The notes beneath the pieces are model-generated. The model did no database searches and was not told where the DNA came from. It saw nothing but the letters and a program-made list of their open reading frames with translations. A stretch of DNA of 64,000 nt from Convolutriloba macropyga. Lineage: Eukaryota. The translations under genes and the position numbers were made by a program. Location: positions 23,932,001 through 23,996,000 of the forward strand of contig NC_134471.1 in NCBI RefSeq assembly GCF_964194025.1. The letters are read 5' to 3'. Shown piece after piece: positions 29,809-64,000 of this stretch. Numbering within the stretch: position 1 is the first letter of the stretch; each line of letters starts with the position of its first letter.

Positions 29809-31083
29809 GGACTTATATGAAACTATCACAACCGAACATGAGACCAATTAATCCAATTAGTATTTTTCTTGGTAATCAATTAAAAATTTAGGGTAATTAA
29901 GGGAAACTTTTTTGTTTTCGGCTGTTTTTAAATCAAGTCAGGCTTCGGCGCTTTCTAACGTCGGCTCTTAATAACGTCGGCTCTGTTGCACGTAACCTGA
30001 ACAATTATTGTTTGCTTAAAGTTTATCTCGATCCAATCTATTGTCCTCAAAAATAATATCGCTACTTCATTGTAATTGGTTCAGAATTTCGCGCTCATTT
30101 CAGTTAAGGTGATATGATTGTTTGACATTTATTGGGTGAAAAATTTATTGATTTTGTGTGCGATTTTAATCGCACAGGTATGTGTCGCCATAGTTGTGTA
30201 CGTCCGCGGAAAATGATCATGCCTTAGCGGCCCACTAAATTACCACGACCGAAGAGGTTATTCTCGCATTATCATTTGTGCCTTAATATAATTGGTTAAC
30301 GAAAAATATGCCTCCTTTCCGGCCAATATTCCATATTGTTAATTTTATTTTGATTTTATTTTAATTTAATTTAATATTCACGACTCTGAATTGGCTAACA
30401 TGCATTTCCAATTGTGTTTTGTGTTTTCAGCGAAGAATCAAGTTTATGCTTGTGAATACAGACAATTTTCGTTTAGTTTACATCTTCGATTGTATTTCGA
30501 GGTCAAAGATAAGTTTTTGTTGAGCAAATTTGATGAATGGCTTCGACCGAACCTGATTTTGATCTAAAAGAAAGTGGGCGTTTGAATGTACTATACTCGA
30601 ATACAAATTTAGTGGGTAAAATTTTATACTTCGCTTAGCCTAAATCGTTTCAATTGAACTTGGTTTCTTAGTGAGAGAAAATGATTCTTTAGTTGACTTG
30701 GACCAAAACGTTTGGGCGGCGGATCCAGTGTACAATGGCTCCTCAAAAGAAGGCCGAACATCCAACGATGACAGAACGGGAGATGTTTTTAAATGTAAAA
30801 AGTGCCGAAGGGCACTGTTCTATTCAGACAGTCTTATAACTCATCTAAATGGTAAATATATCTCCTGATATAACGTGAATGTAGGCATCATTTTTAGCGA
30901 ATATTAGCTAAGATTTATGCGTCCATTGAGCAAATTTTAAACAATAGTTTTTCGTGTTTTCTTGCCAAATACATGATCAGTTGAAACTGTTCCATTTGTC
31001 AAAGTCAAAAGACCGCTGGTGCCTATTATCACCGCAAAGGTTGTTGAACAGATAGACTTCACTATTTTCCATCCGTTTCCTCC
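29809..31083 (+). repeat. Host intron/exon segment duplicated at 36127-37410
   Basis: Near-identical, with a few SNPs and one ~9-bp indel; identity ends at CCATCCGTTTCCTCC (31083/37410). Confidence 0.92.
30672..30851 (+). CDS. DUSP12: DUSP12 exon 2, copy A (…VWAADP…FKCKKCRRALFYSDSLITHLN)
   Basis: TTTCTTAG| acceptor and G|GTAAAT donor; CxxC..R.LF....I..H start of the YVH1 zinc-binding domain; same translation as copy B. Confidence 0.8.
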
Positions 31084-33370: not shown

Positions 33371-36126
33371 TGTAGGACGCATGAAATAAGCAGATACTGC
33401 GAGTAAGTTAGTTTATTTGGGTCAATTTTGACAAGTTAATTAGGTGTTTGAAATAGGCGTTCTTTCTTAAAGGGTTATTGTTTCAAAAGCGCCAGAGAGG
33501 CGAGCTGAGTGATATATCATAAACAAACAAATTGATGAACAAAAGCCTTTTTGAGCTGTCGATATATTTCGTTTACTTAGCAAAGTTGTATTTGTGCGTC
33601 AGGCCAAAATCGAAATGAGTGACTTAAGTTTAGAAAAAAACTAGAGAGCGAATATTTGAAATGAACTAGAAACTTTGAACAGAATTGGAATTTCAGTTTG
33701 AAGTAACTAAAAGTGCGATTTCGAATTTGCAAAAGAATGGGCATTCGGAGACCTGGTACACCACTCTTTAAGTTATATTCAACATTGGACTCTGACAGTT
33801 TGTGACGAGGTTCCCCTAGTGATTGTTCAACTATAGTATGGATGCGCGGCCAGTTACACTTTTTCGATCAGAGTTAGCACCGGAAGTGGTGTTATTCGAC
33901 GGTTTTTGATGTTTTGCAGTATAAATTTGATAGTTTCTGGACGAATTAACGGTATAAAGCAGTCGTACTAGCATGTACTGGTGCAGTAATGTATTGGGTA
34001 ATCATGGGAAATGTTTAGAAAGTTGTGGGAGAAACTTATTGGAATTTTGAAATAAGAAAAGGCAATTTATCAGGTTTTCGAAGTACCCTGGGTACAAAAT
34101 TTGTCCGACCCCTCCCGAGATGGGAAGGAGTTATTAGTTGATAACCAGTCAATGATGGTAGGAACCCCTAATGGTCCTCTATTGCGAGTAAAAATTTCAG
34201 GCCAATCAGACCACCCACCCTTCAGTTATTAACACCGTAAGTAGTGTGATTTGGAGGTTTTTAGTTGTGTTACTGTGAAATATGACTGTTTGGAGTAAGA
34301 AATAATGGAAATAATCAGTCGTAATGTCATGCACGTATGAATTAACGTTTTTGCATGACCTGGGAAGGATTTAAGATGTAAAATGGCGATATTTGAGAAT
34401 ATTGGCAATTATCACAGGAATGTAGTTAGCACCCAATTTGAAAGTATTTTTTCGAAAAGTTTAAGTTGGATTGACCTGAAATTTGGGATAGACCAATTTG
34501 GGTACAAGGAATGCGATTTTGAGATGGGATTAGATCCCAGACCAAACCGCACTTAACTAGCGGAAGTCGGTGCTTCGGGACGACCCGAGTGCCGAAAACC
34601 GGAAATTGGCCTTTTTGAGCGGCCGAATGACTTTGAAATTGTATTAATATGATAACCCAGGACAGTTAGTGACAAAAATACCCGCCCCGGTCAATTTTGA
34701 TAAACTCGGATATTTTGGGTTTTGGCACCCACGACTCTTTAAAATTTTTCGAATTGCAAACGACTCGCAAGGGCTGATCCGTTGGTCATGAAACTTGGCA
34801 GGCAAGTTAGTGGCACCCTATATTTACTAGAAATTATTACCCAAAGACGTTTTGACCACTACTTCGCGAGATATTGAGTTCTGAAGTTTGGGGTCATCTG
34901 GGAGGTCAATGAAAAGTGTGCGCGGTTATTGCTTGTGTTCTATTGGGAGTTAGGCCACGAAATTTTGTGGGTAGGTGCAACTATGAGAGAACTTTCCGTG
35001 ACAATAGTTATCTTTATCAACTTGACCCCTCGTTTTGGACGGGTGACGTTTGGATGACCCCTAGAGGTCAAATTGTGGGCTTTTAGGATTATTAGACTTT
35101 TCGGCATGTATAATTACAGGGAATTGCATGAAATGGTTTCAAGATTGGAAATAACAATTTCTCTTAGTTTTCGGGTTGAGTTTAGTTATTTATTCAACAC
35201 ATGATTTTTGACAGGGATTGATTGCAGCTAGTTCATTTGATAGCAAAATTAGAGGAATAAGAACTTTACAGAGCAACATTTAATGGTTACTAAACAAAAA
35301 CTGATTGTCATGTCAAGTGCATATGTGAGATAAAGCGGATTGGATTTGTTTACATAAGAGTCCAAAGGTCGTGTACTTAAGATAAGGAGAATGTTGAACA
35401 ATGCTTGGTAGCAATTGAATGGCAGAGCATAATTTGATATTGGTTTGTTTGCATAGCAATTAAAGCCCTCCTACAGAATGTGAAAGATTTTAAGTGTAAG
35501 TTGCAATGTTTACTTAAGAGATTAATGTTTGTTTGCTTAAGATAAGAGCGTATTGGTTGAGTATAAATTGAAGTGGCACGCAGAGAGGGTCGAAAACGAT
35601 TTGCTGAGACACAGCAGAAGTGCGACACAGAAGAGATTTTGGCACAAGCGAGAGAAAGTAGTTGGTTTAGTGGGACTAAACTTTAAAAGATAGTGGGGAA
35701 AGCAGAGAGGATACTGAGAGTTTAGTGAGACTGAACTCTGGAAGTTTGTTACTGCAAGGCCAGTTGGGATAGTGTGAGTGTTTTTGGTTTAGTTCATTTT
35801 GGAAGTGAACCACTGATACTATTATTATTATTCTAATTACTATTATAAATTGTCTTAAGTTTGTCTTTTCCATTGATGTGCAAGTAATTTTCTTACATTT
35901 GTTATCCATATAATTAGAATTCATATTACGAGCCCCATTGTGAATTAACTTATTTCAACGCAACCTAATTTGCAACAGCATACGAGAGTGGAAGGGGGGA
36001 ATTAGCAGAGTAACAAAGTAACGCTTGCTTCACCAATTCAAAACCTTTAGTTTATTTTATTTGATCGATCTTCTGGGCGACAGAGTCCCCTCACTGTTGA
36101 GCCTAGCAGAAATTCAGAAGACGACA
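33371..36126 (+). mobile_element. 3' LTR, 2756 bp
   Basis: TGTAGGACGC...GAAGACGACA, preceded by the PPT and followed by TSD GGACT (36127-36131). Confidence 0.88.
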
Positions 36127-36998
36127 GGACTTATATGAAACTATCACAACCGAACATGAGACCAATTAATCCAATTAGTATTTTTCTTGGTAATCAATTA
36201 ACAATTTAGGGTAATTAAGGGAAACTTTTTTGTTTTCGGCTGTTTTTAAATCAAGTCAGGCTTCGGCGCTTTCTAACGTCGGCTCTTTATAACGTCGGCT
36301 CTGTTGCACGTAACCTGAACAATTATTGTTTGCTTAAAGTTTATCTCGATCCAATCTATTGTCCTCAAAAATAATATCAAAAGTATCGCTACTTCATTGT
36401 AATTGGTTCAGAATTTCGCGCTCATTTCAGTTAAGGTGATATGATTGTTTGACATTTATTGGGTGAAAAATTTATTGATTTTGTGTGCGATTTTAATCGC
36501 ACAGGTATGTGTCGCCATAGTTGTGTACGTCCGCGGAAAATGATCATGCCTTAGCGGCCCACTAAATTACCACGACCGAAGAGGTTATTCTCGCATTATC
36601 ATTTGTGCCTTAATATAATTGGTTAACGAAAAATATGCCTCCTTTCCGGCCAATATTCCATATTGTTAATTTTATTTTGATTTTATTTTAATTTAATTTA
36701 ATATTCACGACTCTGAATTGGCTAACATGCATTTCCAATTGTGTTTTGTGTTTTCAGCGAAGAATCAAGTTTATGCTTGTGAATACAGACAATTTTCGTT
36801 TAGTTTACATCTTCGATTGTATTTCGAGGTCAAAGATAAGTTTTTGTTGAGCAAATTTGATGAATGGCTTCGACCGAACCTGATTTTGATCTAAAAGAAA
36901 GTGGGCGTTTGAATGTACTATAATCGAATACAAATTTAGTGGGTAAAATTTTATACTTCGCTTAGCCTAAATCGTTTCAATTGAACTTGGTTTCTTAG

Positions 36999-37178
36999 TG
37001 AGAGAAAATGATTCTTTAGTTGACTTGGACCAAAACGTTTGGGCGGCGGATCCAGTGTACAATGGCTCCTCAAAAGAAGGCCGAACATCCAACGATGACA
37101 GAACGGGAGATGTTTTTAAATGTAAAAAGTGCCGAAGGGCACTGTTCTATTCAGACAGTCTTATAACTCATCTAAATG
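36999..37178 (+). CDS. DUSP12: DUSP12 exon 2, copy B
   Basis: Same as copy A; contiguous with the intron leading to exon 3. Confidence 0.88.
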
Positions 37179-37485
37179 GTAAATATATCTCCTGATATAA
37201 CGTGAATGTAGGCATCATTTTTAGCGAATATTAGCTAAGATTTATGCGTCCATTGAGCAAATTTTAAACAATAGTTTTTCGTGTTTTCTTGCCAAATACA
37301 TGATCAGTTGAAACTGTTCCATTTGTCAAAGTCAAAAGACCGCTGGTGCCTATTATCACCGCAAAGGTTGTTGAACAGATAGACTTCACTATTTTCCATC
37401 CGTTTCCTCCGAGTCCGTAAATCTATCTGTTTAGTATGTTAGATCCATTCTTAATTTGAATCGTTGACCAGGGAATTGTTTTCAG

Positions 37486-37759: not shown

Positions 37760-39850
37760 TTTACAATTCAAAGAATTCGAATTGTATTGGGGCGCTGTCT
37801 TTTTTTTAAGATCTGTTCACACATTTTCATGATTTTTGAAGTCAAATTGGAGTAGTGATTTTGGTCACGCCGAAACAGGAAATTGAGCGAAAAAGCCAGT
37901 GGTTCTGCGACGTCTTCTTTACTCTAATTTTAAAGTAGAGTGAGAAAACGGTGTTTGGACAAAAATTCGCTTTCTCGCTAGTGGTTTTGTGTTCACATGC
38001 GGCATTTTGACACTGAGTTTCGTTTTTTACAGATTTTTTTGATCTGATTTTTTAGAAATGGTTTTCTCAATTCACTCGTAGTCGGTTCTAGGTCTAATTT
38101 TGGTTTAGTCTATGAAAAATCTTTGAATTGTACGTCAGGACTTGTCCTGCTATGTTTTTTTTTACAATTCAAAGAATTTGAATTGTATTGGGGCGCTGTC
38201 TTTTTACGACTCGAAAAGGAAAGAGGAGTATTGGAGAAGTCCTTTTTTTTAATCAATTTTATTGGAGTGATTTTTGAAGCGGGAAATGAAACGCGTGAAA
38301 GAATTTGGAGTGATTTTGGTGCTGAAAAAAAATGAAGAGCGGAGCGAAAAGAGAGTGGTTTTTGTTCATACCGCTGTTTTTCAGAGAGTGAGAAATTGAT
38401 GTGTGAAGAAAATTTCTCTAAGCGAGCGAAATTTTTTTGTTCACGTGCGGCATTTTGAAGCAGTTTTTTTTCATTTATTTTGGTTAAGAGGTTTGGTTAT
38501 GATTTTGTTTTAATTTTAGGCTGGTTTCGGTAGTGGTTTGAAGGTTTTTGGAAATTCATATGAATTTTATGATAATTCGGAGGTTTTTAATGTATTTTGC
38601 TGATTTTCGGGCTAATTATTGCGTTTTTTTGACGATTATACTGTTTTACTGGCTCAAATGGGTATTGAAGAAACCCCTTCTACTTGAGCAAATTTATGAT
38701 AACAATTGGTTACAGTTTTGTGGGTAAGAATCATTTTTTTGTTGAGAAATATGACAAAAAAATGGCGAAAATTGTAACTATTTTTCTTAACTTTTTGCAG
38801 TTTTTCGCTTTTTTACTGTTTGTACAAAGTTTTTTTTAGCCTATTATGACTTGCCTATTGTTTTGCGAGCGTCTGGATACCCTATTGACTGAAGGGAATT
38901 GTTCTTTGGGTTTATATGCTTTTGAAATTTTTTAGAAAATTAGTAACTTTTTCCAGTTTTTCCGTGAAAGTTGTTTTTAAGAGCTTTTTTTCATAATTTC
39001 GCCGAAAATATTTTTTTTAAAATTCACATAAGTGGATTTTTTAAGTACTAGTTGTTTTGATGAAGTTATTTTGGCAGAGATAGTTTTTTCGGTATCTCAA
39101 TTTATAACAAAATTTGATCAGATTTTGTATCATATTTTAAGATTTGATTTTATTGTTTTTACTTTTTTGTTTCATGGTTTTGTTTCAAGATAATCATAAA
39201 TTAATGAAAGCACGTTTTGTTTGATGAGTAGTTGGATGGCTTTAAATGGATTTTCCCTTCGAGTCGTTTCCGGAATTGTTCCGGCTATGTTTTTTTTTAA
39301 GATCTGTTCACACATTTTCATGATTTTTGAAGTCAAATTGGAGTAGTGATTTTGGTCACGCCGAAACAGGAAGTAGAGCGAAAAAGCGAGTGGCTCTGCG
39401 ACATGAAATTTTTTCGCTCTAAATTTAAAGTAGAGTGAGAAAATGGTGTTTGAATAAAAATTCGCTTTCTCGGTAGTGGTTTTTTGTTCACATGCGGCAA
39501 TTTCACTTTGATATTTACTATTTTTTCAATCAGATTTTTTTCTAATTGGTTTTCCCAATCAATTAATATTCCGTTTTAGGTCTAGTTTTGTTTTTAGTCA
39601 ATGAAAATTCTTTGATTTGTACGTCAGGACTTGTCCTGCTATGTTTTTTGTTTCGTCGTCGGACGCTCTTTTTCGTTTTACATTTGTTCACACACTAAAG
39701 CTGAACAATTCAACTTCTCTGAATGACTTTTTCCTCTCACTAACGGCATTTGCGCGCCTGACGTCATTTCTCACTCTCTCTAGCAAGTTTATAGATCATC
39801 TGCGTGATTTCATTTTGATCATACGTGACTTACCTCACTCAATAATATGA
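37760..39850 (-). repeat. Cluster of the same dispersed repeat family as 20524-21480 (copies ~37777-38200, diverged ~38260-38470, ~39270-39850)
   Basis: Shared blocks such as GAATTGTATTGGGGCGCTGTC, TTGTTCACATGCGGCA and TGTACGTCAGGACTTGTCCTGCTATG. Confidence 0.85.
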
Positions 39851-49000: not shown

Positions 49001-50277
49001 ATTGTCACAACTTGCTGCATTACTATCTACTGCACACAACTATCTGTCAAAAAGAGTTAACTTCATTGAACTCATGCTATTCGACTCGAAATCAGTGGTA
49101 TATGCAGATCGATGAGTGAAACCTCGTAAAAGTAAAAATCTTAAAAGTATACCAGAAGAAACTCTTCATAACCGAGCTTTCAATCCTTGTACCTTCGACC
49201 AATTTTTGCGTCCGAACTCTATAAAATTGAGTTACTTGTCAATGAAATTTTGATAACGTTGGAGCAAAAAAATTGCTAATTAGCGCGGCTGCATTTAGTC
49301 GCAAAAAAGCTGAATGAGATATGTTAACTCGACAAGAGAACCAATGTTTTTCTAGCAGCTTAATTGTTAAATCTCACATTCTGCAGAAAATAGAACTGAA
49401 TTGCTTAGAAATATTTTTGTCAATATCATGACAGAAGAAATTTAAGACGTTGCCATGGTCACATAAGAGTGTTGTTACAGTGACAAAAGAGCGCCGTTCG
49501 CAACAAACATATCCTATTTCAATTTAGGTTTCGCTAACATTTCTATAACTGCTCTTATGAGTGCCGTACGGCCTTTGCTAAAACGATACCACTACTACTA
49601 CTGCTACACCATTACAACATAATTGAAAATCTTGATTAGATAGCATTATACAAAAATGCATCTAGCACCTAAACCCCAAGCGAAATTACTCAAGTTGTCA
49701 AACGTGCTCATCAATTGATGCAATTAGGTAATGCCCAAATATAGTTACAATGGTGCCGCTACAAATTGAAATACGAAGCATTGCTCAAGCGACAGCTATA
49801 TCCCCACAAAACTAAGATACTTGAGTACTGAGTACCCTATGCGGAAACTTTTGTTCGCTATTGACCACAGGAATCAACTCTAGTGTCTAATAAGAGTAGT
49901 AAGTAAATACTGTCTCAAGAGAGTGGGGGGTTATCCTACGATACTTAAACATGGGATAATAGGGGGTTATCCTAGACGGAAAGGGATTAACTTTCATTCT
50001 TTACCAGATGTGATTATGTAAGACTATTTCCAAGGCGGCAAACTTGTTTTCGGTCAAACAGCCAACGTTGTTCTAAATTTTGTTCCGATAAGAGCTTCAA
50101 GTGAACAAAATATTGAAACATATTTTAGCACTCATAAACACAAAATTTACATGATTAGGAATTCAAAAGGCGCAGTTTGGGCAGTTAGGTACAAGTTTAT
50201 AGTCTGCGCGCAACTTTAAATGCTGGTTCTTCTTCATAATTGCTACTACTTTCATATGATTCATATAATCGCTACTA

Positions 50278-52989
50278 ATTTTCCTAACCACTAATCCCAA
50301 GTTAACATACAGTTTCAACAGCTTGTAATGCAGCACATAATGTTCTTTGTCGAAGAATGTCTGCAACAGTTTTGGAACTTTTGAGGGGGGTAAGTTATGA
50401 ATCTCTCGCAAATTTACTTGGTAGTCGCTGAGCTAGTCATCCTCAACAACATTTTTGATGGTGCGAGGGGGAAGTCCTGATGGTAATCGTGTAGACTTGC
50501 AGGATAATGCAAGTTGACTTCCACGAAGTAACCGACAGGGTTATCATCAGGACAGTTTAGTATCTCAGCCAGTGTAATATCAGAGTTCAGCGTAAAATCT
50601 GACTGAGGGAGTTTTTCATTTTGCATGACGCCGCCGTATAGGTTATTGGCGTCCACGCAGAAGCCAAATGTCGAGGGTTGTGAAGAGTCATAATCTGGCA
50701 AAAATTTATTATTTGCTGTAAACTTTCTCATCTCGTAGACTGAACATACTCCCTCACGTACTGCGCCTTCTATCATATCGAGGTGCTCGCGTTCTGTAAG
50801 CAATTCGACTTCTGCCTTGCATATTCTCACTGATGTTTCCTTAGCCATATTTGGCAGTGTGTAAAAGTGCATGCAGTCGAGTTTGTAGGTGGAGAAACTG
50901 AGCTCTCTGTGGAACTCACAAATGCCTGCGAGAAGAGCGCAATCGGTTTTCAGGTATGCATCGTGGTAGTCTTGTAGAGTTTGACAATTCAGAGTGTTCC
51001 ACATCGTCCTGGCATGGTTCAAGTTTTCTTGAGTTATTGTTACTGCGTTTCCTTCTAAAGTGTTACCCCATTCATTAAGCTGCGGTAGGGATTTTTCGCT
51101 GAACTTTTCTCGACCGCTAACATATGAATAGGGGTGATATCCTTTTTGCTGGAGGAGCTTCAATTCTGTTGAGGATAGGTTAGGAAAGACAGAAGCAAGT
51201 ATTCCAAAACGATCTCTTGGTAAAATGTCAACCAACTTTTCGAGAGACGAATTCATCATTTTGAATGAATCAATAAACCTCAGATTTTCATAATTTTTGA
51301 TCACTTTTCCATCATCTAGGGTTATGGTCTCCACGGCACTCCAAAGTTCATGGAAATGTACTTTTCATCAGTAGACGGAATTACACTTACAGTGGTCGTT
51401 GGCTCACAAGATTGCAGGGCTAAACAAATGTGGTGAAGATCATAATTTTGTATATTAAGACCCACCACAGGGGTAAAGTTGACGTTCTTTCGTGCTCGGT
51501 TGCATTTTTCAGGAGCCCAGCCAAGAAATTGTCCGCTGTAGTGGCAGTGATCCAGATAAATTGATGACTGTTCATCATTATTGTCAAAGGGTTCGTTACA
51601 TATCCAACATTCCCTAGCTGCACTTTTCGGATACTGGCTACGGTCACCTCTGAAGAAAGGAAAAGCTCGTTTGCGCTTGTATATATCCTTGGCTAGTGTG
51701 TGTAACATGTTTACAAATTTAGGAATGCAATCTTCAGAGCTGTCAACGTGGAAGAAGATGGGTTTTGTTGAGTTGTGATCAATTACCGCAAGTGAAAAAC
51801 CACAGGGCTCGTGTTTTTCAATAACTCTGGTGTATGCGTTGTTCCCTTGGGGCGTGCATCCTGCTACTGGAAACAAGAAGGATTCGAAGTCAAAGTAAAT
51901 GACTAATGGAACAAACCATGTAGCGGCCAAGTTTTTGATTTTATATAAATTTTTTCCCGGAGCTGGTAATCGAACAACAGCCGGCGCATTTTCACAGCAG
52001 GTCTCCATACGTTCGGTAAGCTTTGCAAGGCCTTCTTCACACAACCAGAAACAATTCCGGCTAATATGAAACGCAAAGCGGAATTTGGTATTTCGGAGTT
52101 GACAGACTACCTTGACCAAGTTGGTTATCAATACATAATGGTAACAGTCAGCTTCGTATAAAAGCAAGAGATCCATTGTGAAGTTTGAGAAAAACTTTGA
52201 CACTCTGAGTGGAAATAAGTCTCTACCATCATAACCAAAAACGTTGATTCGATTTTCATTGAGATTTTCGAACTGATTGATGTCTTCTAGCCCCATGGGC
52301 ATATCGAAGTGTCCAGTTGGTTGATGGAGGTTGGCTTGCTTGTAAGTTTCGGGTGATGTTTTGTCTGTGTTGTAGTTCCTTCCTGGTCGATCTAAGCTAA
52401 TAGTGTTGTGCATATGATATGCAGCAATATAGCAGTAAAGGAAGCAATTTGCGTCCTCATGATTACGAATATTAAGTAAACTGCGGCATTTTTGTAATTT
52501 TGATGGTAATGCAATGTAAGACGAGCCAGTTACAGGTCGGTAGCGGGCAAAGTTTACAATTGCTTTGATAAATTTCTCAAGCACCCAACCACTACCATTA
52601 GAAGCAAATGTGGTTAGCACTATCATCGTCTTCTCGACCATAGTCCAAAAGGTCTCACTGCTAAGTCCCTGACTGTAAACGGGTGTCATGAGCGAATTTG
52701 CATAAATTTCAATAAGTTCATCTTCTTGATCTTCGTTTTGACTTGGTTTTCGGAGTTGAAGATGGGCACAAAATTGAACTTTTTGCGATTCTTGTGAGAG
52801 TTTTTGTTCTATAAGCGAATCGAGTTGTGGTTTATGCAGGAGCAAAAACTGAGTAAGGTCTGTGTTGGTTTGGGTTGTTGATGGCGGCAGATGGTAGCTC
52901 TGAAGGGTACCATTAAAGGCAGTTTCTGCCGGCGCTTGAGTTGGTTGAAATTGATCGCCAAAGACAGGTAAAGAATGCAAAGAACTCAT
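50278..52989 (-). pseudogene. Protein-primed family-B DNA polymerase (Polinton/adintovirus-like), left-arm copy; frameshifted at ~51330 and ~50450 and truncated before motifs B and C
   Basis: ExoI YFDFES; endonuclease-VII-like CWIC...DHCHYSG..LG.A...CN; ExoII NIQNYD; FIDSFKMM; ExoIII YLKTD; motif A DANNLYG; YVLHY..LKLY..LGL. Homology is lost after LVVRKI. Confidence 0.92.
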
Positions 52990-52992
52990 ATG

Positions 52993-53247
52993 CTAAGCAA
53001 ATAGTCTGGTGTCGTTAAAACCCATATAGCAGGACCGACAACAGTTTGTAAATTTTTGATGACAAGTCCTCATGTGTTGTTCCAGTTCAGAAGGTTTTCT
53101 ACAAGTGAATGTACAAATACAACAGGTAAAGACTGGTAAACCTATTTCGTCGGGGTGGTAGCGATGCTCATGTCGAGATTGGTTTCCCCTGTTAGCAAAT
53201 GTTGCCGAACAATATTTGCAATTGAAAACCTTAGTTGGGAAATTCAA
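52993..53247 (-). pseudogene. Three C2H2 zinc fingers in frame with the polymerase, separated from it by TAG (left arm)
   Basis: CKYC...HEHRYH, CCIC...HMRTCH, CRSC...FA*HMSSLH; TTG start. Confidence 0.85.
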
Positions 53248-55357
53248 GATTCAAAAGTTAGCAGAGATAATGACAACTTTCGTAAACATGTAATTCAACT
53301 TCAAATGGCGAATTTCTTTCTATTCCACACGAGTCTCTTATAATAGGCGCGCAATTTAAACTTTCAAAATCTCCGAATTTGATTGGATAATATGAGCGCG
53401 CGTTTTGTCCCAGCTTTAGTCAACTAATACGAACATATCAAGTTGCGTTGAACTAAAAGTAGCGCTTTACGTTTCCCACTGAACAACACTGACATGATAA
53501 AACTTGTTTGAGATTTTCGAATATTTAGTGCAATATACAAAAAGACGTCTAAAACCATGAATAGTTCTTTTTAGTTTTTAGCTATATGTGATGCGACAAA
53601 ACATATCAATGGCAACTTTTAATTAAATTTCAGGTTTAGATAAAAAAAACTTTTATGAATTTTTAATGACATTTCAATCAAAAATGTTCATCTTTTTTCT
53701 TCATTTTGATAGCTAATAAGCTCTAATGAAGAGGGAACATTTGTGTTTCAACCTTTTAGATGTAATATTACACTTCAGTAGCCTACCTAAAAAGAAAATT
53801 TCGATCTAATTTCATCAGAATATTTGAAAAACATTCCAAAATTATCGCTTTTTTCAACACTTTGTTAAATTTTAAGTACAAGGGATGCTTGGGACGGTTA
53901 TGATGCATAGTTTTATCACTGTCACGGTGTCTGAACAGCTAATAAGTCCACTAAAAGCAAATGAAATGTTCATTTTTTTCGCTTAATGTTGCAAAAAAGA
54001 ACGATTTTTGTAGTTTTTTCACTGTAGATACCAATGGGTGCGTCTGAAGATGTTGGGCGTCATAACAAAAAATGCTCCCCGGGCACTAAAACGTAGGAAC
54101 CGACAAGAAAAAATCCCTCATCTTTATCAGGAAAAAATTTAGATTTTCTGTCAATCATGATCAATCAATGTCATCACATGACAGCCAATGACAAGCCCCC
54201 TGTTGCAAGCATTTTTCGATGACAGCTGTTATGAGATGATTTTGTCTCCAGCCCCCGAAAAATTGGTTTTCTAAAAAAACCTGGTGTATCATTATTATTT
54301 CGGGCACTTCAATTGCTAATTAATGCCAGATGTTAATGAGACGTTAATGTCCAGATGTTTTGAAAATCGGTGAAGGAGCCGTTTTTCGGCCCTGACCCTT
54401 ATGACCAAAAGTGACAAGCATGTATCAGTGATTACAAATCCGTTTGAAAAATTGGGGATCTTTTTTCATTAATTACTAATTAGACTAATTAGGTGCTAAT
54501 TAGATGTTAATTAATGGTTAATTATCTCATGAAGGATTGAGTTTAAATTGACGAGCCTTATGAGCTTTTTTGTAGTGCAGTGTCTGATAGTATCAACCAA
54601 ATAGTCAGTTTCATCCCAAATATCTGTTGGAGCCGATTTTTTTGGGGTCAAAGGTCACCGTGAAAAACGAAAAAATTTTTTTTTTCGTTTTTTTCAACTT
54701 TTTTTTATAGAAAAATGTGCTTATTTTCTTAATAATATCGATAGCCCACATTAATCGCTTGGTAATGACGTTCAGGTTTTGAGTTTTCGTTCCGTCGAAA
54801 AAAATTTAATCGGCAAAAAACCGAAAAAATCTCATTTTTTTTTTAAAAAAAAATCCTTTCTTTTTTCCTCTTTTTTGCTGAAAAAATGATGTTTTGCTAG
54901 TTTAATTAGCACCCCAAGGTATATCCAAGAGGAGCGCTGGTATTATACCAGCATACCAAGAACGATATACTAAATGAGGTTTTTGTTTGATAAGCAGTTT
55001 ATGCATTTTTTTTGAAGCTTTTGTTCAAACTTAATTTTACATTTTAATAGCTTTCTCAACAAATTTTCTCTCAACCAATCAGAAGCTTGGTTGCTTCCTG
55101 TTATATATTACCTTCTGAACATGTTTGAACATGTCCATTTTCAAAATTTTCTCTCAACTTTGTCTCACTAAACAGTACTGTTTTTGTGAACATGTTTGAA
55201 CATGTCCATTTTTGTAAAATTCTGATTCTGAAGTCTGTTTTCTATGTAAAAACATTAAAAGAAGAGTGTCAATTAGCGAGCTATTCACAAAAGATAGTAG
55301 CACAACACACCAAAGTGCAAAAGAAATATAATTCAATATTAAATAAGTTGTTAGAGG

Positions 55358-56068
55358 TCAAAAAAGTCCATTAGAGAGTCTTCCTCTCTTCGTTTTTTTT
55401 GGTGCTGCGCATACTACTGGAGTTTCCGAGCAATTGGGTGTCTTGACATCGGAGGAATTTGTTTGGGGTTGTGGTGTCTGAAAGTTTGAACCAGATAAAA
55501 AATTGACGTCAAACTGACTTGTATTTGCAAAATTGTCAGAGATCTTGTTCTTCCTCTGGAAATCCTCAGAGTGAGAGGCTTGGGGTTGGAGTAAAAGTTG
55601 GGCTTGGATCCACAGCAGGAGTTGTTGGAACACTGACTGAAACACTCGGTGGCTGACTGTCCGGTGAGGATGGTGATGATTTGACACCCCACATATCACC
55701 CAAATTTTTGTAGGCTTGATATGTACCGAGTTGATTCTCGAATAAGGGCACACAATCGCAGTCGTATCTGTACAAGATACGTCTCACTTCGTCCGGCAAA
55801 GTTTCTTCAGTCGAATGCATTTGTGGTATAGTTTTTGGTGGTGAGTATCCTCCAGAAGTAATGATACTGGATTCAGCCGGCTCCGTTTTTTCCGGTAGAG
55901 CAGCAATAGCGTTAATAAATAGCTTCGGTATCAAACAATGCTCGTAAGTGTACCACAAATCGTTTTCTTTTCTGTTGTACCAGAACGACAAAATTTTCAA
56001 ACACGGTTTGGTAAACAAGAGTTCTCTCAAAAGAGATAGCAGACTCCGAAAGAATTTTCACGGACATT
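55358..56068 (-). pseudogene. Decayed Pro/Ser/Thr-rich ORF of unknown function (mirror copy 58387-59103, +)
   Basis: Overlapping long ORFs of 154 and 131 aa can be joined by frameshifts from ATG(MSVKILSESAIS) to a basic C-terminus PKKTKRGRL. No recognisable domain. Confidence 0.5.
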
Positions 56069-56124
56069 GTTTTGAAGTTCAAGTTCGATTCAATAGTTAA
56101 CTGTTAAGTAAGAGCAAAAGAAAG

Positions 56125-56935
56125 AAATGAACACAAGTACAAAATTCTTTCCCAACATGTGTTTCGCAAGGTTTGCCTTATCTAAGACCAAACAAATGAT
56201 TGGAGCATAATCACACCTAGTTGCATAATATATTGTATATAACATGTGGTTAGCCACACTGTGGTTCCTTTACAGAGGAATTTGGGGTCACATCGGTTTT
56301 GTATTGGTTGTATGTAAATTGTGTGTGGTCTCTGGTTTATATTATCTAGCGTCACATCTGTTCTAAATCAACTTGTATGTAAAATAAATGGTCCCTACAC
56401 TATTAATGGTTAACTTTCTCCCACACAGAAGTGTGGGTTGTGCTGATAAATTTATTGCTTTATATACAAAACACATGTACTTGTTATCTTTGTTCGCAAG
56501 TAGGTTCTGGTGGTTTATAGAGGTATGGTCTTAATTAAACTATTATCTAAAAATGAACACAAGTACAAAATTTTTTCCCAACATGTGTTTCGCAAGGTTC
56601 GCTTTATCTGAGACCAAACAAAAGATTGGAGCATGCCTTTTAGTCACGCCTAGTTGCATAAAACAGCTCTTTGTTTATAGCATGTGGTTAGCCGCACGGT
56701 GGTTCCTTTACAGAGGAATTTGGGGTCACATCTGTTTTGTTTTGGTTTTATGTAAATTTTGTATGGTCTCTACACTATACTATCTAGGGTCACATCTGTT
56801 CCAAATCAACTTGTAAAATACATGGGTCCCTACACTATTAATGCTTAACTCTCTCCAACAGGGAAGTGTGGGGTTGTGTAGATAAATGTATTGCTTTATA
56901 TACAAAACACATGTACTTGTTATCTCTGTTTGCAA
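56125..56935. repeat. Two diverged ~426-bp direct repeats next to the palindrome axis (mirror ~57541-58328)
   Basis: AAATGAACACAAGTACAAAAT starts at 56125 and 56551; the second unit is cut by the axis. Confidence 0.9.
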
Positions 56936-56949
56936 CCACCAGAACCTAC
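56936..56949. other. Palindrome axis: 14-nt spacer CCACCAGAACCTAC between TTGCAA arms; assembled a second time at 57527-57540
   Basis: …TTATCTCTGTTTGCAA-CCACCAGAACCTAC-TTGCAAACAGAGATAA…. Segment 56890-57280 recurs at 57481-57871 across the gap (offset 591). Confidence 0.92.
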
Positions 56950-57280
56950 TTGCAAACAGAGATAACAAGTACATGTGTTTTGTATATAAAGCAATAAATT
57001 TATCTACACAACCCCACACTTCCCTGTTGGAGAGAGTTAAGCATTAATAGTGTAGGGACCCATGTATTTTACAAGTTGATTTAGAACAGATGTGACCCTA
57101 GATAGTATAGTATAGAGACCATACAAAATTTACATAAAACCAAAACAAAACAGATGTGACCCCAAATTCCTCTGTAAAGGAACCACCGTGCGGCTAACCA
57201 CATGCTATAAACAAAGAGCTGTTTTATGCAACTAGGCGTGACTAAAAGGCATGCTCCAATCTTTTGTTTGGTCTTAGATA

Positions 57281-57480
57281 NNNNNNNNNNNNNNNNNNNN
57301 NNNNNNNNNNNNNNNNNNNNNNNNNNNNNNNNNNNNNNNNNNNNNNNNNNNNNNNNNNNNNNNNNNNNNNNNNNNNNNNNNNNNNNNNNNNNNNNNNNNN
57401 NNNNNNNNNNNNNNNNNNNNNNNNNNNNNNNNNNNNNNNNNNNNNNNNNNNNNNNNNNNNNNNNNNNNNNNNNNNNNNNN
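57281..57480. other. Assembly gap (200 N) with overlapping flanks
   Basis: Run of N; sequence left of the gap is repeated right of it. Confidence 1.
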
Positions 57481-60400
57481 ATTGCTTTATATACAAAACA
57501 CATGTACTTGTTATCTCTGTTTGCAACCACCAGAACCTACTTGCAAACAGAGATAACAAGTACATGTGTTTTGTATATAAAGCAATAAATTTATCTACAC
57601 AACCCCACACTTCCCTGTTGGAGAGAGTTAAGCATTAATAGTGTAGGGACCCATGTATTTTACAAGTTGATTTAGAACAGATGTGACCCTAGATAGTATA
57701 GTATAGAGACCATACAAAATTTACATAAAACCAAAACAAAACAGATGTGACCCCAAATTCCTCTGTAAAGGAACCACCGTGCGGCTAACCACATGCTATA
57801 AACAAAGAGCTGTTTTATGCAACTAGGCGTGACTAAAAGGCATGCTCCAATCTTTTGTTTGGTCTTAGATAAGGCGAACCTTGCGAAACACATGTTGGGA
57901 AAGAGTTTTGTACTTGTGTTCATTTTTAGATAATAGTTTAATTAAGACCATACCTCTATAAACCACCAGAACCTACTTGTGTTTTGTATATAAAGCAATA
58001 AATTTATCAGCACAACCCACACTTCTGTGTGGGAGATAGTTAACCATTAATAGTGTAGGGACCCATTTATTTTACATACAAGTTGATTTAGAACAGATGT
58101 GACGCTAGATAATATAAAGCAGAGACCACACACAATTTACATACAACCAATACAAAACCGATGTGACCCCAAATTCCTCTGTAAAGGAACCACAGTGTGG
58201 CTAACCACATGTTATATACAATATATTATGCAACTAGGTGTGATTATGCTCCAATCTTTTGTTTGGTCTTAGATAAGGCAAACCTTGCGAAACACATGTT
58301 GGGAAAGAATTTTGTACTTGTGTTCATTTCTTTCTTTTGCTCTTACTTAACAGTTAACTATTGAATTGAACTTGAACTTCAAAACAATGTCCGTGAAAAT
58401 TCTTTCGGAGTCTGCTATCTCTTTTGAGAAAACTCTTGTTTACCAAACCGTGTTTGAAAATTTTGTCGTTCTGATACAACAGAAAAGAAAAACGATTTGT
58501 GGTACACTTACCAGCATTGTTTGATACCGAAGCTATTTATTAACGCTATTGCTGCTCTACCGGAAAAAACGGAGCCGGCTGAATCCAGTATCATTACTTC
58601 TGGAGGATACTCACCACCAAAAACTATACCACAAATGCATTCGACTGAAGAAACTTTGCCGGACGAAGTGAGACGTATCTTGTACAGATACGACTGCGAT
58701 TGTGTGCCCTTATTCGAGAATCAACTCGGTACATATCAAGCCTACAAAAAATTGGGTGATATGTGGGGTGTCAAATTATCAGCATCCTCACCGGACAGTC
58801 AGCCACCGAGTGTTTCAGTCAGTGTTCCAACAACTCCTCCTGTGGATCCAAGCCCAACTTTTACTCCAACCCCAAGCCTCTCACTCTGAGGATTTCCAGA
58901 GGAAGAACAAGATCTCTGACAATTTTGCAAATACAAGTCAGTTTGACGTCAATTTTTTATCTGGTTCAAACTTTCAGACACAACAACCCCAAACAAATTC
59001 CGCCGATGTAAAGACACCCAATTGCTCGGAAACTCCAGTAGTATGCGCAGCACAAAAAAAACGAAGAGAGGAAGACTCTCTAATGGACTTTTTTGACCTC
59101 TAACAACTTATTTAATATTGAGTTATATTTCCTTTGCACTTTGGTGTGTTGTGCTACTATCCTTTGTGAATAGCTTGCTAATTGACACTCTTCTTTTAAT
59201 GTTTTTACATAGAAAACAGACTTCAGAATCAGAATTTTACAAAAATGGACATGTTCAAACATGTTCACAAAAACAGTACTGTTTAGTGAGACAAAGTTGA
59301 GAGAAAATTTTGAAAATGGACATGTTCAAACATGTTCAGAAGGTAATATATAACAGGAAGCAACCAAGCTTCTGATTGGTTGAGAGAAAATTTGTTGAGA
59401 AAGCTATTAAAATGTAAAATTAAGTTTGAACAAAAGCTTCAAAAAAATGCATAAACTCCTTATCAAACGAAAACCCCATTTAGGAAATCGTTCTTGGTAT
59501 GCTGGTATAATACCAGCGCTCCTCTTGGATATACCTTGGGGTGTTAGTTAAACTAGCAAAACATCATTTTTTCAGCAAAAAAGATGAAAAAAAGAAAGGG
59601 TTTTTTTTTAAAAAAAATGAGATTTTTTCGGTTTTTTGCCGATTAAATTTTTTTCGACGGAACGAAAACTCAAAACCTGAACGTCATTACCAAGCGATTA
59701 ATGTGGTCTATCGATATGATTAAGAAAATAAGCACATTTTTCTAAAAAAAAAGCTGAAAAAAACGAAAAAAAAAAATTTTTTTTGTTTTTCATGGTGACC
59801 TTTGACCCCAAAAAAATCGGCTCCAACAGATATTTGGGATGAAACTGACTATTTGGTTGATACTATCAGACACTGCACTACAAAAAAGCTCATAAGGCTC
59901 GTCAATTTAAACTCAATCCTTCATGAGATAATTAACCATTAATTAACATAATTAGCACCTAATTAGTCTAATTAGTAATTAAAAAAAAGATCCCCATTTT
60001 TTTAAACAGATTTTTAATCACTGATACATGCTTGTCACTTTTGGTCATAGGGGTCAGGGCCGAAAAACGGCTCCTTCACCGATTTTCAAAACATCTGGAC
60101 ATTAACGTCTCATTAACATCTGGCATTAATTAGCAATTGAAGTACCCGAAATAATAATGATACACCAGGTTTTTTTAGAAAACCAATTTTTTGGGGGCTG
60201 GAGACAAAATCATCTCATAACAGCTGTCATCGAAAAATGCTTGCAACAGGGGGCTTGTCATTGGCTGTCATGTGATGACATTGATTGATCATGATTGACA
60301 GAAAATCTAAATTTTTTCCTGATAAAGATGAGGGATTTTTTCTTGTCGGTTCCTACGTTTTAGTGCTCGGGGAGCATTTTTTGTTGTGACGCCCAACATC

Positions 60401-61060
60401 GTCAGACGCACCCATCGGTATCTACAGTGAAAAAACTACAAAACTCGTTCTTTTTTGCAACATTAAGCGAAAAAAATGAACATTTCATTTGCTTTTAGTG
60501 GACTTATTAGCTGTTCCAACACCGTGACAGTAATAAAACTATGCATCATAACCGTCCCAAGCATCTCTCGTACTTAAAATTTAACAAAGTGTTGAAAAAA
60601 GCGATAATTTTGGAATGTTTTTCAAATATTCTAATGAAATTAGATCGAATTTTTCTTTTTAGGTAGGCTACTGAAGTGTAATATTACATCTAAAAGGTTA
60701 AAACACAAATGTTTCCTCTTCATTAGAGCTTATTAGCTATCAAAATGAAGAAAAAAGATGAACATTTTTGATTGAAATGTCATTAAAAATTCATAAAAGT
60801 TTATTTTATCTAAACCTGAAATTTAATTAAAAGTTGCCATTGATATGTTTTGTCGCATCACATATAGCTAAAAACTAAAAAGAACTATTCATGGTTTTAG
60901 ACGTCTTTTTGTATATTGCACTAAATATTCGAAAATCTCAAACAAGTTTTATCATGTCAGTGTTGTTCAGTGGGAAACGTAAAGCGTTACTTTTAGTTCA
61001 CCCCAACTTGATATGTTCGTAGTAGTTGACTAAAGCTGGGACAAAACGCGCGCTCATATT

Positions 61061-61112
61061 ATCCAATCAAATTCAAAGATTTTGAAAGTTTAAATTGCGC
61101 GCCTATTATAAG
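61061..61112 (+). promoter_or_regulatory. Candidate promoter of the ZnF-polymerase gene (CCAAT, GCGCGC, TATTATAA)
   Basis: ATCCAATCA at 61061 and GCGCGCCTATTATAAGAG ~90-105 nt upstream of the ORF; mirrored at ~53338-53390. Motif inference only. Confidence 0.4.
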
Positions 61113-61201
61113 AGACTCGTGTGGAATAGAAAGAAATTCGCCATTTGAAGTTGAATTACATGTTTACGAAAGTTGTCATTATCTCTGCTAACTTTTGAAT
61201 C

Positions 61202-61456
61202 TTGAATTTCCCAACTAAGGTTTTCAATTGCAAATATTGTTCGGCAAAATTTGCTAACAGGGGAAATCAATCTCGACATGAGCATCGCTACCACCCCGAC
61301 GAAATAGGTTTACCAGTCTTTACCTGTTGTATTTGTACATTCACTTGTAGAAAACTTTCTGAACTGGAACAACACATGAGGACTTGTCATCAAAAATTTA
61401 CAAACTGTTGTCGGTCCTGCTATATGGGTTTTAACGACACCAGACTATTTGCTTAG
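61202..61456 (+). pseudogene. Three C2H2 zinc fingers in frame with the polymerase, separated from it by TAG (right arm)
   Basis: As in the left arm; TTT GCT TAG CAT ATG AGT TCT TTG CAT. Confidence 0.85.
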
Positions 61457-61459
61457 CAT

Positions 61460-64000
61460 ATGAGTTCTTTGCATTCTTTACCTGTCTTTGGCGATCAATT
61501 TCAACCAACTCAAGCGCCGGCTGAAACTGCCTTTAATGGTACCCTTCAGAGCTACCATCTGCCGCCATCAACAACCCAAGCCAACACAGACCTTACTCAG
61601 TTTATGCTCCTGCATAAACCACAACTCGATTCGCTTATAGAACAAAAACTCTCACAAGAATCGCAAAAAGTTCAATTTTGTGCCCATCTTCAACTCCGAA
61701 AACCAAGTCAAAACGAAGATCAAGAAGATGAACTTATTGAAATTTATGCAAATTCGCTCATGACACCCGTTTACAGTCAGGGACTTAGCAGTGAGACCTT
61801 TTGGACTATGGTCGAGAAGACGATGATAGTGCTAACCACATTTGCTTCTAATGGTAGTGGTTGGGTGCTTGAGAAATTTATCAAAGCAATTGTAAACTTT
61901 GCCCGCTACCGACCTGTAACTGGCTCGTCTTACATTGCATTACCATCAAAATTACAAAAATGCCGCAGTTTACTTAATATTCGTAATCATGAGGACGCAA
62001 ATTGCTTCCTTTACTGCTATATTGCTGCATATCATATGCACAACACTATTAGCTTAGATCGACCAGGAAGGAACTACAACACAGACAAAACATCACCCGA
62101 AACTTACAAGCAAGCCAACCTCCATCAACCAACTGGACACTTCGATATGCCCATGGGGCTAGAAGACATCAATCAGTTCGAAAATCTCAATGAAAATCGA
62201 ATCAACGTTTTTGGTTATGATGGTAGAGACTTATTTCCACTCAGAGTGTCAAAGTTTTTCTCAAACTTCACAATGGATCTCTTGCTTTTATACGAAGCTG
62301 ACTGTTACCATTATGTATTGATAACCAACTTGGTCAAGGTAGTCTGTCAACTCCGAAATACCAAATTCCGCTTTGCGTTTCATATTAGCCGGAATTGTTT
62401 CTGGTTGTGTGAAGAAGGCCTTGCAAAGCTTACCGAACGTATGGAGACCTGCTGTGAAAATGCGCCGGCTGTTGTTCGATTACCAGCTCCGGGAAAAAAT
62501 TTATATAAAATCAAAAACTTGGCCGCTACATGGTTTGTTCCATTAGTCATTTACTTTGACTTCGAATCCTTCTTGTTTCCAGTAGCAGGATGCACGCCCC
62601 AAGGGAACAACGCATACACCAGAGTTATTGAAAAACACGAGCCCTGTGGTTTTTCACTTGCGGTAATTGATCACAACTCAACAAAACCCATCTTCTTCCA
62701 CGTTGACAGCTCTGAAGATTGCATTACTAAATTTGTAAACATGTTACACACACTAGCCAAGGATATATACAAGCGCAAACGAGCTTTTCCTTTCTTCAGA
62801 GGTGACCGTAGCCAGTATCCGAAAAGTGCAGCTAGGGAATGTTGGATATGTAACGAACCCTTTGACGATAATGATGAGCAGTCATCAATATATCTGGATC
62901 ACTGCCACTACAGCGGACAATTTCTCGGCTGGGCTCATGAAAAATGCAACCGAGCACGAAGAAACGTCAACTTTACCCCTGTGGTGGGTCATAATATACA
63001 AAATTATGATCTTCACCACATTTGTTTAGCCCTGCAATCTTGTGAGCCAACGACCACTGTAAGTGTAATTCCATCTACTGATGAAAAGTACATTTCCATG
63101 AACTTTGGAGTGCCCGTTGAGACCATAACCCTAGATGATGGAAAAGTGATCAAAAATTATGAAAATCTGAGGTTTATTGATTCATTCAAAATGATGATTT
63201 CGTCTCTCAAAAATTTGGTTGACATTTTACCAAGAGATCGTTTTGGAATACTTGCTTCTGTCTTTCCTAGCCTATCCTCAACAGAATTGAAGCTCCTCCA
63301 GCAAAAAGGATATTACCCCTATTCATATGTTAGCGGTCGAGAAAAGTTCAGCGAAAAATCCCTACCGCCACTTAATGAATGGCGTAACACTTTAGAAGGA
63401 AACGCAGTAACAATAACTCAAGAAAACTTGAACCATGCCAAGACGATGTGGAACACTCTGAATTGTCAAACTCTACAAGACTACCACGATACATACCTGA
63501 AAACCGATTGCGCTCTTCTCGCAGGCCTTTGTGAGTTCAACAGAGAGCTCAGTTTCTCCACCTACAAACTCGACTGCATGCACTTTTACACACTGCCAAA
63601 TATGGCTAAGGAAGCATCATTGAGAATATGCAAGGCAGAAGTCGAATTGCTTACAGAACGCGAGCACCTCGATATGATAGAAGGCGCAGTACGTGGGGGA
63701 GTATGTTCAGTCTACGAGATGAGAAAGTTTACAGCAAATAATAAATTTTTGCCAGATTATGACTCTTCACAACCCTCGACATTTGGCTTCTGCGTGGACG
63801 CCAATAACCTATACGGCGGCATCATGCAAAATGAAAAACTCCCTCAGTCAGATTTTACGCTGAACTCTGATATTACACTGGCTGAGATACTAAACTGTCC
63901 TGATGATAACCCTGTCGGTTACTTCGTGGAAGTCGACTTGCATTATCCAGCAAGTCTACACGATTACCATCAGGACTTCCCCCTCGCACCATCAAAAAGT
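61460..64000 (+). CDS. Protein-primed family-B DNA polymerase with endonuclease-VII-like insert (Polinton/adintovirus-like); open for 847 codons to the window end
   Basis: Absent from the ORF track, consistent with no stop in the window. The left-arm frameshift is absent (GGA GTG CCC GTT GAG ACC at ~63107). Motifs YFDFES, DHCHYSG..LGWAHEKCN, HNIQNYD, KGYYPY, YLKTD and DANNLYG are intact. Confidence 0.9.
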   Translation, partial: MSSLHSLPVFGDQFQPTQAPAETAFNGTLQSYHLPPSTTQANTDLTQFMLLHKPQLDSLIEQKLSQESQKVQFCAHLQLRKPSQNEDQEDELIEIYANSLMTPVYSQGLSSETFWTMVEKTMIVLTTFASNGSGWVLEKFIKAIVNFARYRPVTGSSYIALPSKLQKCRSLLNIRNHEDANCFLYCYIAAYHMHNTISLDRPGRNYNTDKTSPETYKQANLHQPTGHFDMPMGLEDINQFENLNENRINVFGYDGRDLFPLRVSKFFSNFTMDLLLLYEADCYHYVLITNLVKVVCQLRNTKFRFAFHISRNCFWLCEEGLAKLTERMETCCENAPAVVRLPAPGKNLYKIKNLAATWFVPLVIYFDFESFLFPVAGCTPQGNNAYTRVIEKHEPCGFSLAVIDHNSTKPIFFHVDSSEDCITKFVNMLHTLAKDIYKRKRAFPFFRGDRSQYPKSAARECWICNEPFDDNDEQSSIYLDHCHYSGQFLGWAHEKCNRARRNVNFTPVVGHNIQNYDLHHICLALQSCEPTTTVSVIPSTDEKYISMNFGVPVETITLDDGKVIKNYENLRFIDSFKMMISSLKNLVDILPRDRFGILASVFPSLSSTELKLLQQKGYYPYSYVSGREKFSEKSLPPLNEWRNTLEGNAVTITQENLNHAKTMWNTLNCQTLQDYHDTYLKTDCALLAGLCEFNRELSFSTYKLDCMHFYTLPNMAKEASLRICKAEVELLTEREHLDMIEGAVRGGVCSVYEMRKFTANNKFLPDYDSSQPSTFGFCVDANNLYGGIMQNEKLPQSDFTLNSDITLAEILNCPDDNPVGYFVEVDLHYPASLHDYHQDFPLAPSKS

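Follow-up and report, generated by a model that had tools for sequence, protein, structure and literature searches.

A palindromic Polinton derivative with two copies of one end in the acoel Convolutriloba macropyga, and the possible origin of double-ended Polinton copies

The replication cycle of animal Polintons (Mavericks; Polintovirus), comprising excision, protein-primed copying, packaging and re-integration, has been deduced largely from the genes that the elements carry. Among linear replicons with protein-capped ends, palindromic derivatives are known from pGKL1 (hairpin plasmids), Streptomyces linear plasmids and adenovirus (defective genomes). For Polintons, terminal inverted repeats (TIRs) of 100–1,500 bp are quoted in the relevant passages of PMC10748475 and PMC6431247, adintoviruses are described in a passage of PMC8502044 as having an OTU domain at the N-terminus of PolB, and copy-back and snap-back genomes of RNA viruses are treated in a section of PMC13506859. 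Expansion of inverted repeats is said to have been reported for Polintons as well (a passage of PMC3573991, citing Jurka et al. 2007). Here, a stretch of 64,000 nucleotides from Convolutriloba macropyga (assembly GCF_964194025.1, NC_134471.1, positions 23,932,001 to 23,996,000), called the window, was analysed; plain positions refer to this stretch. It contains a 14.1-kb palindromic derivative of a 16.9-kb Polinton, in which one half of the parent element is present twice, head to head, within a single insertion.

Self-comparison of the window pairs 57481–63998 with 56995–50452 at 97.7% identity over 6,550 bp; with the next assembly stretch included, the mirror covers 57481–64556 against 56995–49895 (97.8% over 7,108 bp). 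This bears out the mirror arms described in a first-pass annotation of the same DNA, together with the 14-nt spacer between them (the reverse complement of sequence at 56500), the AA/TT microhomology proposed for the fold-back (the axis junction has a 2-bp AA homology) and the two ~426-bp repeats in each arm, which are 86–88% alike. The left arm had been thought to end at 50278, whereas it extends across a deletion shared by both arms to a Polinton terminus at 49895; the right arm ends 556 bp beyond the window. On the coordinates of a full-length parental copy, the element reads from 16924 down to 8707 and then from 8691 up to 16924. Both outer ends are the polymerase-side terminus of the Polinton family with its 96-bp TIR, and a single 6-bp target-site duplication, AATAAG, surrounds them, a 6-bp match having a chance probability of ~4e-4 per site at 35% GC. 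The feature coordinates are collected in Table 1.

A 200-N scaffold gap close to the axis had been overlooked. The contig ends on its two sides (56890–57280 and 57481–57871) overlap by 391 bp at 100% identity, and the spacer is seen twice (at 56936 and 57527) because these two contigs were left unmerged; after merging, the element measures 14,071 bp. It might be argued that two haplotypes or a library chimera were scaffolded in opposite orientation across this gap, since the assembly breaks exactly at the axis, as it does at a related copy on C1, and no axis-bridging contig is among the pieces listed from four public runs, most pieces (3,855 and 129 loose ends) lying outside that list. We regard such an artefact as very improbable. 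Each of the two contigs contains the axis on its own, and the 331 bases of the left contig beyond the axis agree with the right arm throughout (0 differences) but differ from the left arm at 4 positions. The outer flanks are mutually unrelated, share the 6-bp duplication and lie in order, ~220 bp apart, in an element-free paralogous segment, so that the host locus holding the element is continuous. Four other double-ended copies are free of gaps inside, and the left flank–TIR junction was found in contigs assembled from three of the four public runs, all of which come from a single study, possibly with the assembled sample among them; in one public run, of low coverage, another insertion site of the Polinton family was seen. 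Oppositely oriented haplotypes were rejected on the flanks, the duplication, the paralogue and the contig overlap, and the first-pass view that a simple amplification chimera is unlikely was upheld. A palindrome taking in host flank was ruled out as well, as the arms end exactly at the TIRs. Elsewhere in the assembly the window junction was not found: a 28-nt pattern with up to 2 mismatches matched only the two overlapping contig ends.

The parent family was characterised from 17 fetched copies, with 12 loci in full and one natural copy of 16,924 bp as coordinate ruler. The repeat region gave 47 genome matches among 40 scored candidates, and beyond the axis position the 17 fetched copies are 91–97% identical. 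The parent element measures 16.9 kb (most full copies mapped, 16.6–17.4 kb), its TIRs are 95–100 bp long (96 bp in the typical element) and start with AGTAGT, and a perfect 6-bp target-site duplication is present at 10 of the 12 full loci; two ordinary copies show none. Its genes comprise a protein-primed DNA polymerase (pPolB; PF03175, E 1.4e-9) in a 1,212-codon frame with exonuclease and polymerase motifs, a retroviral-type integrase (PF00665 rve, E 1.8e-8), an A32-like packaging ATPase (PF04665, E 6.6e-5) and a C5 (adenoviral-type) protease (PF00770, E 3.2e-6). The capsid protein, a 436-residue open reading frame (ORF), was identified by fold search, no sequence match being found in solved structures or phages; the predicted double jelly-roll (model pLDDT, a confidence score, 84.5) is closest to the Sputnik virophage capsid (E 1.9e-17), followed by the PBCV-1 and mavirus capsids. 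Among 120 listed relatives, the only species label is that of Convolutriloba macropyga itself (62–81% identity). A 297-codon ORF between integrase and capsid, with no Pfam match, is a minor capsid candidate by position. Weak Pfam matches below the cut-off (DAXX, TLP-20, DUF6348, VMA21) were set aside. With Polintons taken as elements of 13–25 kb with TIRs, a 5–8-bp target-site duplication, pPolB, rve, ATPase, protease and capsid, the parent family is an ordinary Polinton by the definition given in the relevant passage of PMC10748475. Integrase, ATPase, protease and capsid genes are absent from the window, as the first-pass annotation had observed, because they are carried in the half of the parent that was replaced.

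On the ruler, the ~426-bp repeats occupy 8657–9432, near the midpoint and between divergent gene blocks. Their number varies (five units in C3:41935628-41937768, three in C4:1468722-1470020, two in most copies), and a perfect hairpin with a 12-bp stem, kept in 17 of 17 copies, lies ~60 bp upstream of the first unit, between the fold-back axis shared by three copies described below and the repeats. A genome search with pPolB returned 5,824 first-look candidates; at least two Polinton families of ~60–100 copies each are present, many with long open frames, and the Polinton load of this genome appears very large and repeatedly active. Local tandem duplications of one terminus together with host flank were seen at C10:49176829, C10:8284755, C3:42023318, C13:44188896 and C15:44597547; internal tandem duplications are common, also at C6:20509321 and C13:28014570. 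At C1:2970001-2990000, a Polinton of the second family is apparently nested in an older, diverged one.

As the first of two options, the first-pass annotation had read the locus as the junction of an integrated dimer, in which a linear pPolB replicon with a hairpin end beside tandem repeats is joined head to head. The mirror arms, the short spacer and the repeats at the axis agree with this. However, all of the other copies fetched (17 of 17) extend past the axis position by 3.9 kb or more, the ordinary full-length copies mapped, 11 in number, end in conventional 96-bp TIRs and not at the repeats or spacer, and 59 of the 61 facing end pairs in the genome are ordinary left–right pairs. This explanation is thereby refuted, the first two results being the outcome that the annotation itself had named as fatal to it. 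Repeats of a terminal, poxvirus or parvovirus type were likewise rejected, since they lie at the middle of the element and its natural ends are the outer TIRs.

The arrangement is seen more than once. With motifs specific to each end, 102 matches to the polymerase side (100 listed) and 75 to the left end were obtained, and within 40 kb the facing pairs, classed by position, comprise besides the 59 ordinary ones two polymerase–polymerase pairs and no left–left pair; the two are the window copy and C10:8288282-8303315. Another 53 ends were unpaired (7 in copies already mapped, 32 examined at 29 loci, 14 outside the examined set), and they added the complete copies C5:18879930-18893485 and C13:28014570-28036622 as well as C1:76852757, which runs through an axis and then into an N gap, its right end and duplication being unassembled. 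The C5 axis, used as a query, was matched over its whole length at three sites, one of them in a further copy, C15:44577758-44594570. Five complete loci (window, C10, C5, C13 and C15) therefore have arms complementary to each other, one and the same end at either terminus and a perfect 6-bp duplication of their own. About 18 further loci with both ends are ordinary, and double-ended copies make up ~6 of 80; 2 of these 6 have a gap at the axis.

Four independent junctions can be distinguished: 8707/8691 in the window copy (2-bp homology), 13595/5208 in C10 (1–2 bp), 7141/9182 in C13 (no homology seen) and 8475/8381, common to C5, C1 and C15, where the axis lies at an 8-bp inverted repeat closing a predicted DNA hairpin. 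Three of the four have a break within the central repeat region or next to it. The lengths on parental coordinates are 0.97, 0.89, 1.00 and 1.04 of unit length. The polymerase end is doubled at all four, a bias that is not significant, and unpaired polymerase ends were searched harder than left ends. A second family (56 and 87 end motifs, 49 left–right pairs) runs counter to it with one left–left copy, C13:22422322-22434348, which has a 6-bp duplication, 4.2-kb arms at 98% identity and 72% of unit length. Its middle holds 2.6 kb from the polymerase region of an apparent third family, and the copy may be a chimera of two Polinton families. This middle contains the 5' part of a zinc-finger pPolB with a DNA-level match to neither family. 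A strong hairpin lies at about 4731–4827 of the copy of family 2.

One palindromic lineage has moved. A tree of the right half (positions 9433–16924), built from rows in which more than 2,500 bases are aligned, places C5, C1 and C15 in a single clade (support 1.0). Over 3,814 columns, all five arms of these copies have 15 private letters in common; 54 letters are private to C5 plus C1, private meaning absent from the ~55 rows compared and not from the whole family. Two deletions are common to C5 and C1 only (3 arms, among 52 rows for one deletion and 55 for the other), and the three loci have flanking sequences that are unrelated to one another. With a shared axis, one clade and different chromosomes, palindromic copies moved as units, one lineage reaching three chromosomes. 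In principle C15, whose stem is short (0.011), might have folded independently at that inverted repeat inside a single subfamily; for C5 and C1 this is not an option. An element with two copies of one end is thus a valid substrate for movement, and the polymerase-side TIR region is sufficient in cis. Propagation with helper functions is borne out for this lineage only, not for the window copy.

The window copy itself is non-autonomous and dead: it lacks integrase and capsid genes, and neither of its pPolB copies is intact; in place of a full core gene set with intact pPolB, it has the right half only, twice. The zinc-finger pPolB proposed earlier is supported on the right arm by a Pfam DNA_pol_B_2 match above the cut-off, whereas the Endonuclease_7 match is weak. 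The left copy has lost its start codon, has an early stop and a frameshift near 51337, and lacks motifs B and C by deletion. Comparison of the arms, which differ by 102 substitutions within the window, verified the frameshift and two histidine changes noted for the left arm only; the deletion noted for the right arm only is real, although it comprises 23 bp at 57977 and not ~27 bp. Other defects are common to both arms. The lost start codon is seen in one of 53 other rows and the early stop in none of 54, and the 1.29-kb deletion with filler occurs in only the two window arms among 45 rows, the other 43 covering rows being without it. No donor with the same deletion was found among the 40 candidates scored out of 603. 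The shared pPolB changes (14 missense, 2 stops, 4 silent) are neutral in kind, compared with 69 silent and 20 missense between subfamilies.

Counts of private letters in both arms against differences between arms give 2 versus 103 for C10, 30 versus 549 for C13 and 51 versus 393 for C15. By these values, C10 and C13 doubled at about the time of insertion. Arms may be made alike later on: in the window copy a tract of 1,121 bases is identical in both arms (P ~1.5e-6), a second of 437 aligned bases lies over the shared deletion junction, just beyond the window, and in C5, C15 and C13 the shared letters are clustered in tracts (runs tests, p below 0.001). Together, identical tracts and clustered letters show that arm-to-arm conversion occurs. 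Three histories fit the window copy: it doubled at insertion and has been converted since, it decayed and was re-mobilised, doubling on the way, or it was doubled in situ, an event dated to ~40% of its age.

As for the origin of such copies, the explanation we lean towards, by a modest preference, is an error of the snap-back type made while the element replicated, protein-primed, outside the chromosome, a helper integrase then inserting the product in trans. Protein-primed pPolB would start at the polymerase-side TIR and displace a strand. At about the midpoint, where the non-coding region is rich in repeats and hairpins, the growing strand would fold back or switch to the displaced strand at 1–8 bp of homology, and copying would return to the same end. 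The resulting hairpin would have one duplex origin, and re-initiation there would yield a full duplex palindrome with two correct ends. This could then be inserted in trans by the integrase of an intact relative, after which the arms would diverge by mutation, with patchy arm-to-arm conversion. The structure, duplications and recurrence of the copies, the movement of one lineage and conversion are established by the data, whereas the template switch, the hairpin intermediate and the helper are inferred. Hints in favour of this explanation are the insertion-time doubling of two copies, the breaks at or near the central repeats in three of the four junctions, and the lengths close to one genome. 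In adenovirus, genomes of 75–105% of unit length are accommodated. The joint chance that four lengths fall within this range under uniform breakpoints is ~0.002, a post hoc figure.

Repair in place, which corresponds to the second option of the first-pass annotation (fold-back duplication of an endogenous element), is the main rival and a close one for the window copy; we consider it a serious possibility, somewhat short of even. An ordinary Polinton would have inserted, decayed and broken near the central repeats, whereupon the left TIR would prime on the right TIR, the polymerase half would be copied inward to the break and the ends would be joined at AA; in a variant, the strand would fold back at the break and return through the TIR. 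Either way, the old target-site duplication would be kept. Such palindromes would still be movable in trans afterwards, as the C5/C1/C15 lineage was. Repair most simply explains the neutral mutations and the deletion common to both arms, and it agrees with a tree in which the arms split at ~40% of the age of the copy (stem 0.013, tips 0.008 and 0.010) and with the uniqueness of the window junction in the genome. The filler at the deletion presumably resembles host end joining. The same route has been proposed for the extended TIRs of Galileo in a passage of PMC3573991. On the other hand, repair requires that 8.7 kb were removed exactly to a 96-bp TIR, and it predicts neither the insertion-time doubling of C10 and C13 nor the near-genome lengths. 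Conversion can itself make shared mutations, and one identical tract spans the deletion junction. Differences between the two TIRs (window, 1; six subfamily copies, 0, 2, 2, 2, 4 and 3) do not discriminate between old and new ends.

Several observations weigh against a snap-back origin outside the chromosome. The window copy has 31 shared private letters against 99 arm differences in the full set (57 shared with an earlier set), its runs test reaches only p = 0.054, and no part of its arms has the ~4% divergence expected for doubling at the subfamily burst. Neutral shared changes and the shared 1.29-kb deletion indicate that the dead copy decayed before its arms were last made alike. Neither a donor nor a sister of the window junction or deletion was found. 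The target-site duplication would survive repair in place too, the length argument is post hoc and built on four junctions only, and the family-2 copy at 72% does not fit it. An extrachromosomal molecule was not observed. For the symmetric cases, forks converging halfway along the element, or fragility there, would be explanation enough, with no part for packaging.

It is possible, if on balance rather doubtful, that Polintons more generally behave as true viruses do and, in the course of protein-primed replication, shed defective genomes of the snap-back or copy-back kind, each about as long as one genome. Helper enzymes would serve to replicate and integrate these, packaging might occur too, and parasitic palindromic lineages could be founded by them; the palindromes would then be a fossil record of the replication cycle, with traces of the points at which forks stall or meet and of the length that a particle can take. 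Doubling at insertion time and near-unit lengths offer only indirect hints of production during replication, packaging and helper interference. Double-ended copies would provide testable marks of the cycle in genome data, namely the end doubled, the switch site, the length and the arm identity at insertion. Since kilobase palindromes break assemblies and undergo arm-to-arm conversion, such copies are probably under-counted elsewhere. Should they prove to be products of in-place repair, they would amount to no more than an extreme form of TIR extension.

Table 1. Features of the palindromic element and its insertion site, in positions of the window
Feature	Position	Strand
Target-site duplication AATAAG, left copy	49889..49894	.
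Left terminus: 96-bp TIR starting AGTAGT, then polymerase-end-specific sequence	49895..49990	+
Left arm, inverted polymerase half (reference 16924 down to 8707)	49895..56935	-
Junction of ~1.29-kb deletion (3' pPolB and most of next ORF) with ~27-bp filler partly copied from adjacent sequence	50251..50277	.
Broken pPolB, left copy: N-terminal zinc fingers, exonuclease, HNH/EndoVII-like insert, motif A	50278..53250	-
P/S/T-rich ORF fragments, left arm	55358..56057	-
Tandem repeats of the left arm (~426-bp units, one complete, one clipped); internal position close to parent midpoint	56125..56935	-
Axis: 14-nt spacer, 2-bp AA microhomology, only at this locus in the genome	56936..56949	+
200-N scaffold gap; axis shown a second time at 57527-57540	57281..57480	.
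Right-arm repeats	57525-58329	+
Right arm, continuing to second polymerase-side TIR 556 bp beyond window	57541..64000	+
P/S/T-rich ORF fragments, right arm	58458-59103	+
Broken pPolB, right copy	from 61199	+
1,121-bp stretch without arm differences, likely arm-to-arm gene conversion	61604..62726	+
Target-site duplication AATAAG, right copy, directly after right terminus	bases 557-562 beyond window end	

The P/S/T-rich ORF has ~249 codons in unbroken copies and belongs to no Pfam family. An inverted paralogue of the surrounding host DNA lies 60 kb away (C4:23921157-23922542, 81–90% identity), and the exons downstream of the element belong to what we take to be a rhodopsin-type receptor, a candidate only. 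In the remainder of the window, a second 200-N scaffold gap is present at 371–570, and 2947–16883 is an array of ~1.66-kb units, 96–98% alike, with a larger 3-kb duplication; within it, 2947–4867 and 4865–6785 are 100% identical, which may be an assembly duplication. A direct duplication of 4 kb (27081–31083 and 33371–37410, 96% identity) and a ~360-bp dispersed repeat in four copies, 79–89% alike (20510–21430, 37773–38163 and 39257–39652), were also seen.

Among known systems, the palindromes of pGKL1, Streptomyces linear plasmids and adenovirus come from fold-back at a short inverted repeat, which gives two copies of one protein-primed end; those forms are extrachromosomal and from culture, whereas the Polinton forms described here are integrated. 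In the full-text literature searched, with most subscription papers outside the search, none of the papers listed deals, by its title or the opening of its abstract, with palindromic or snap-back whole-element Polintons or with their movement. The parent agrees with Polinton/Maverick elements as characterised in passages of PMC10748475 and PMC6431247 in its TIRs starting with AG, its 6-bp duplications and its full gene set, and the HNH/EndoVII-like insert in its pPolB is as in the pPolB2 class described there, while its 96-bp TIR is slightly below the quoted range. The window copy departs from these elements in having the same end twice, 7-kb inverted arms and no left-half genes. As for the OTU domain of adintoviruses, a Pfam search of the first 1,120 pPolB residues, by sequence-profile matching only, listed no OTU family.

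Adeno-associated virus (AAV) snapback genomes (a passage of PMC8235507) and snap-back or copy-back defective viral genomes (a section of PMC13506859) likewise have one end doubled and depend on a helper, and both of their types have counterparts here, the window copy and C5/C1/C15 being symmetric and C10 and C13 asymmetric. Compared with the AAV and RNA-virus forms, the parent is a protein-primed double-stranded DNA element, and its derivatives are germline insertions with target-site duplications and 1–5% divergence. The window derivative would work much as such snapback genomes do, with packaging and interference hypothetical, and is not filed as a defective interfering genome. In the extended TIRs of Galileo (a passage of PMC3573991), sequence beside one TIR has been copied to the other end, as here; the Galileo TIRs reach up to ~1.25 kb, whereas the arms in Convolutriloba macropyga measure 3.3–8 kb, can fill the whole element and, in one palindromic lineage, have moved with it.

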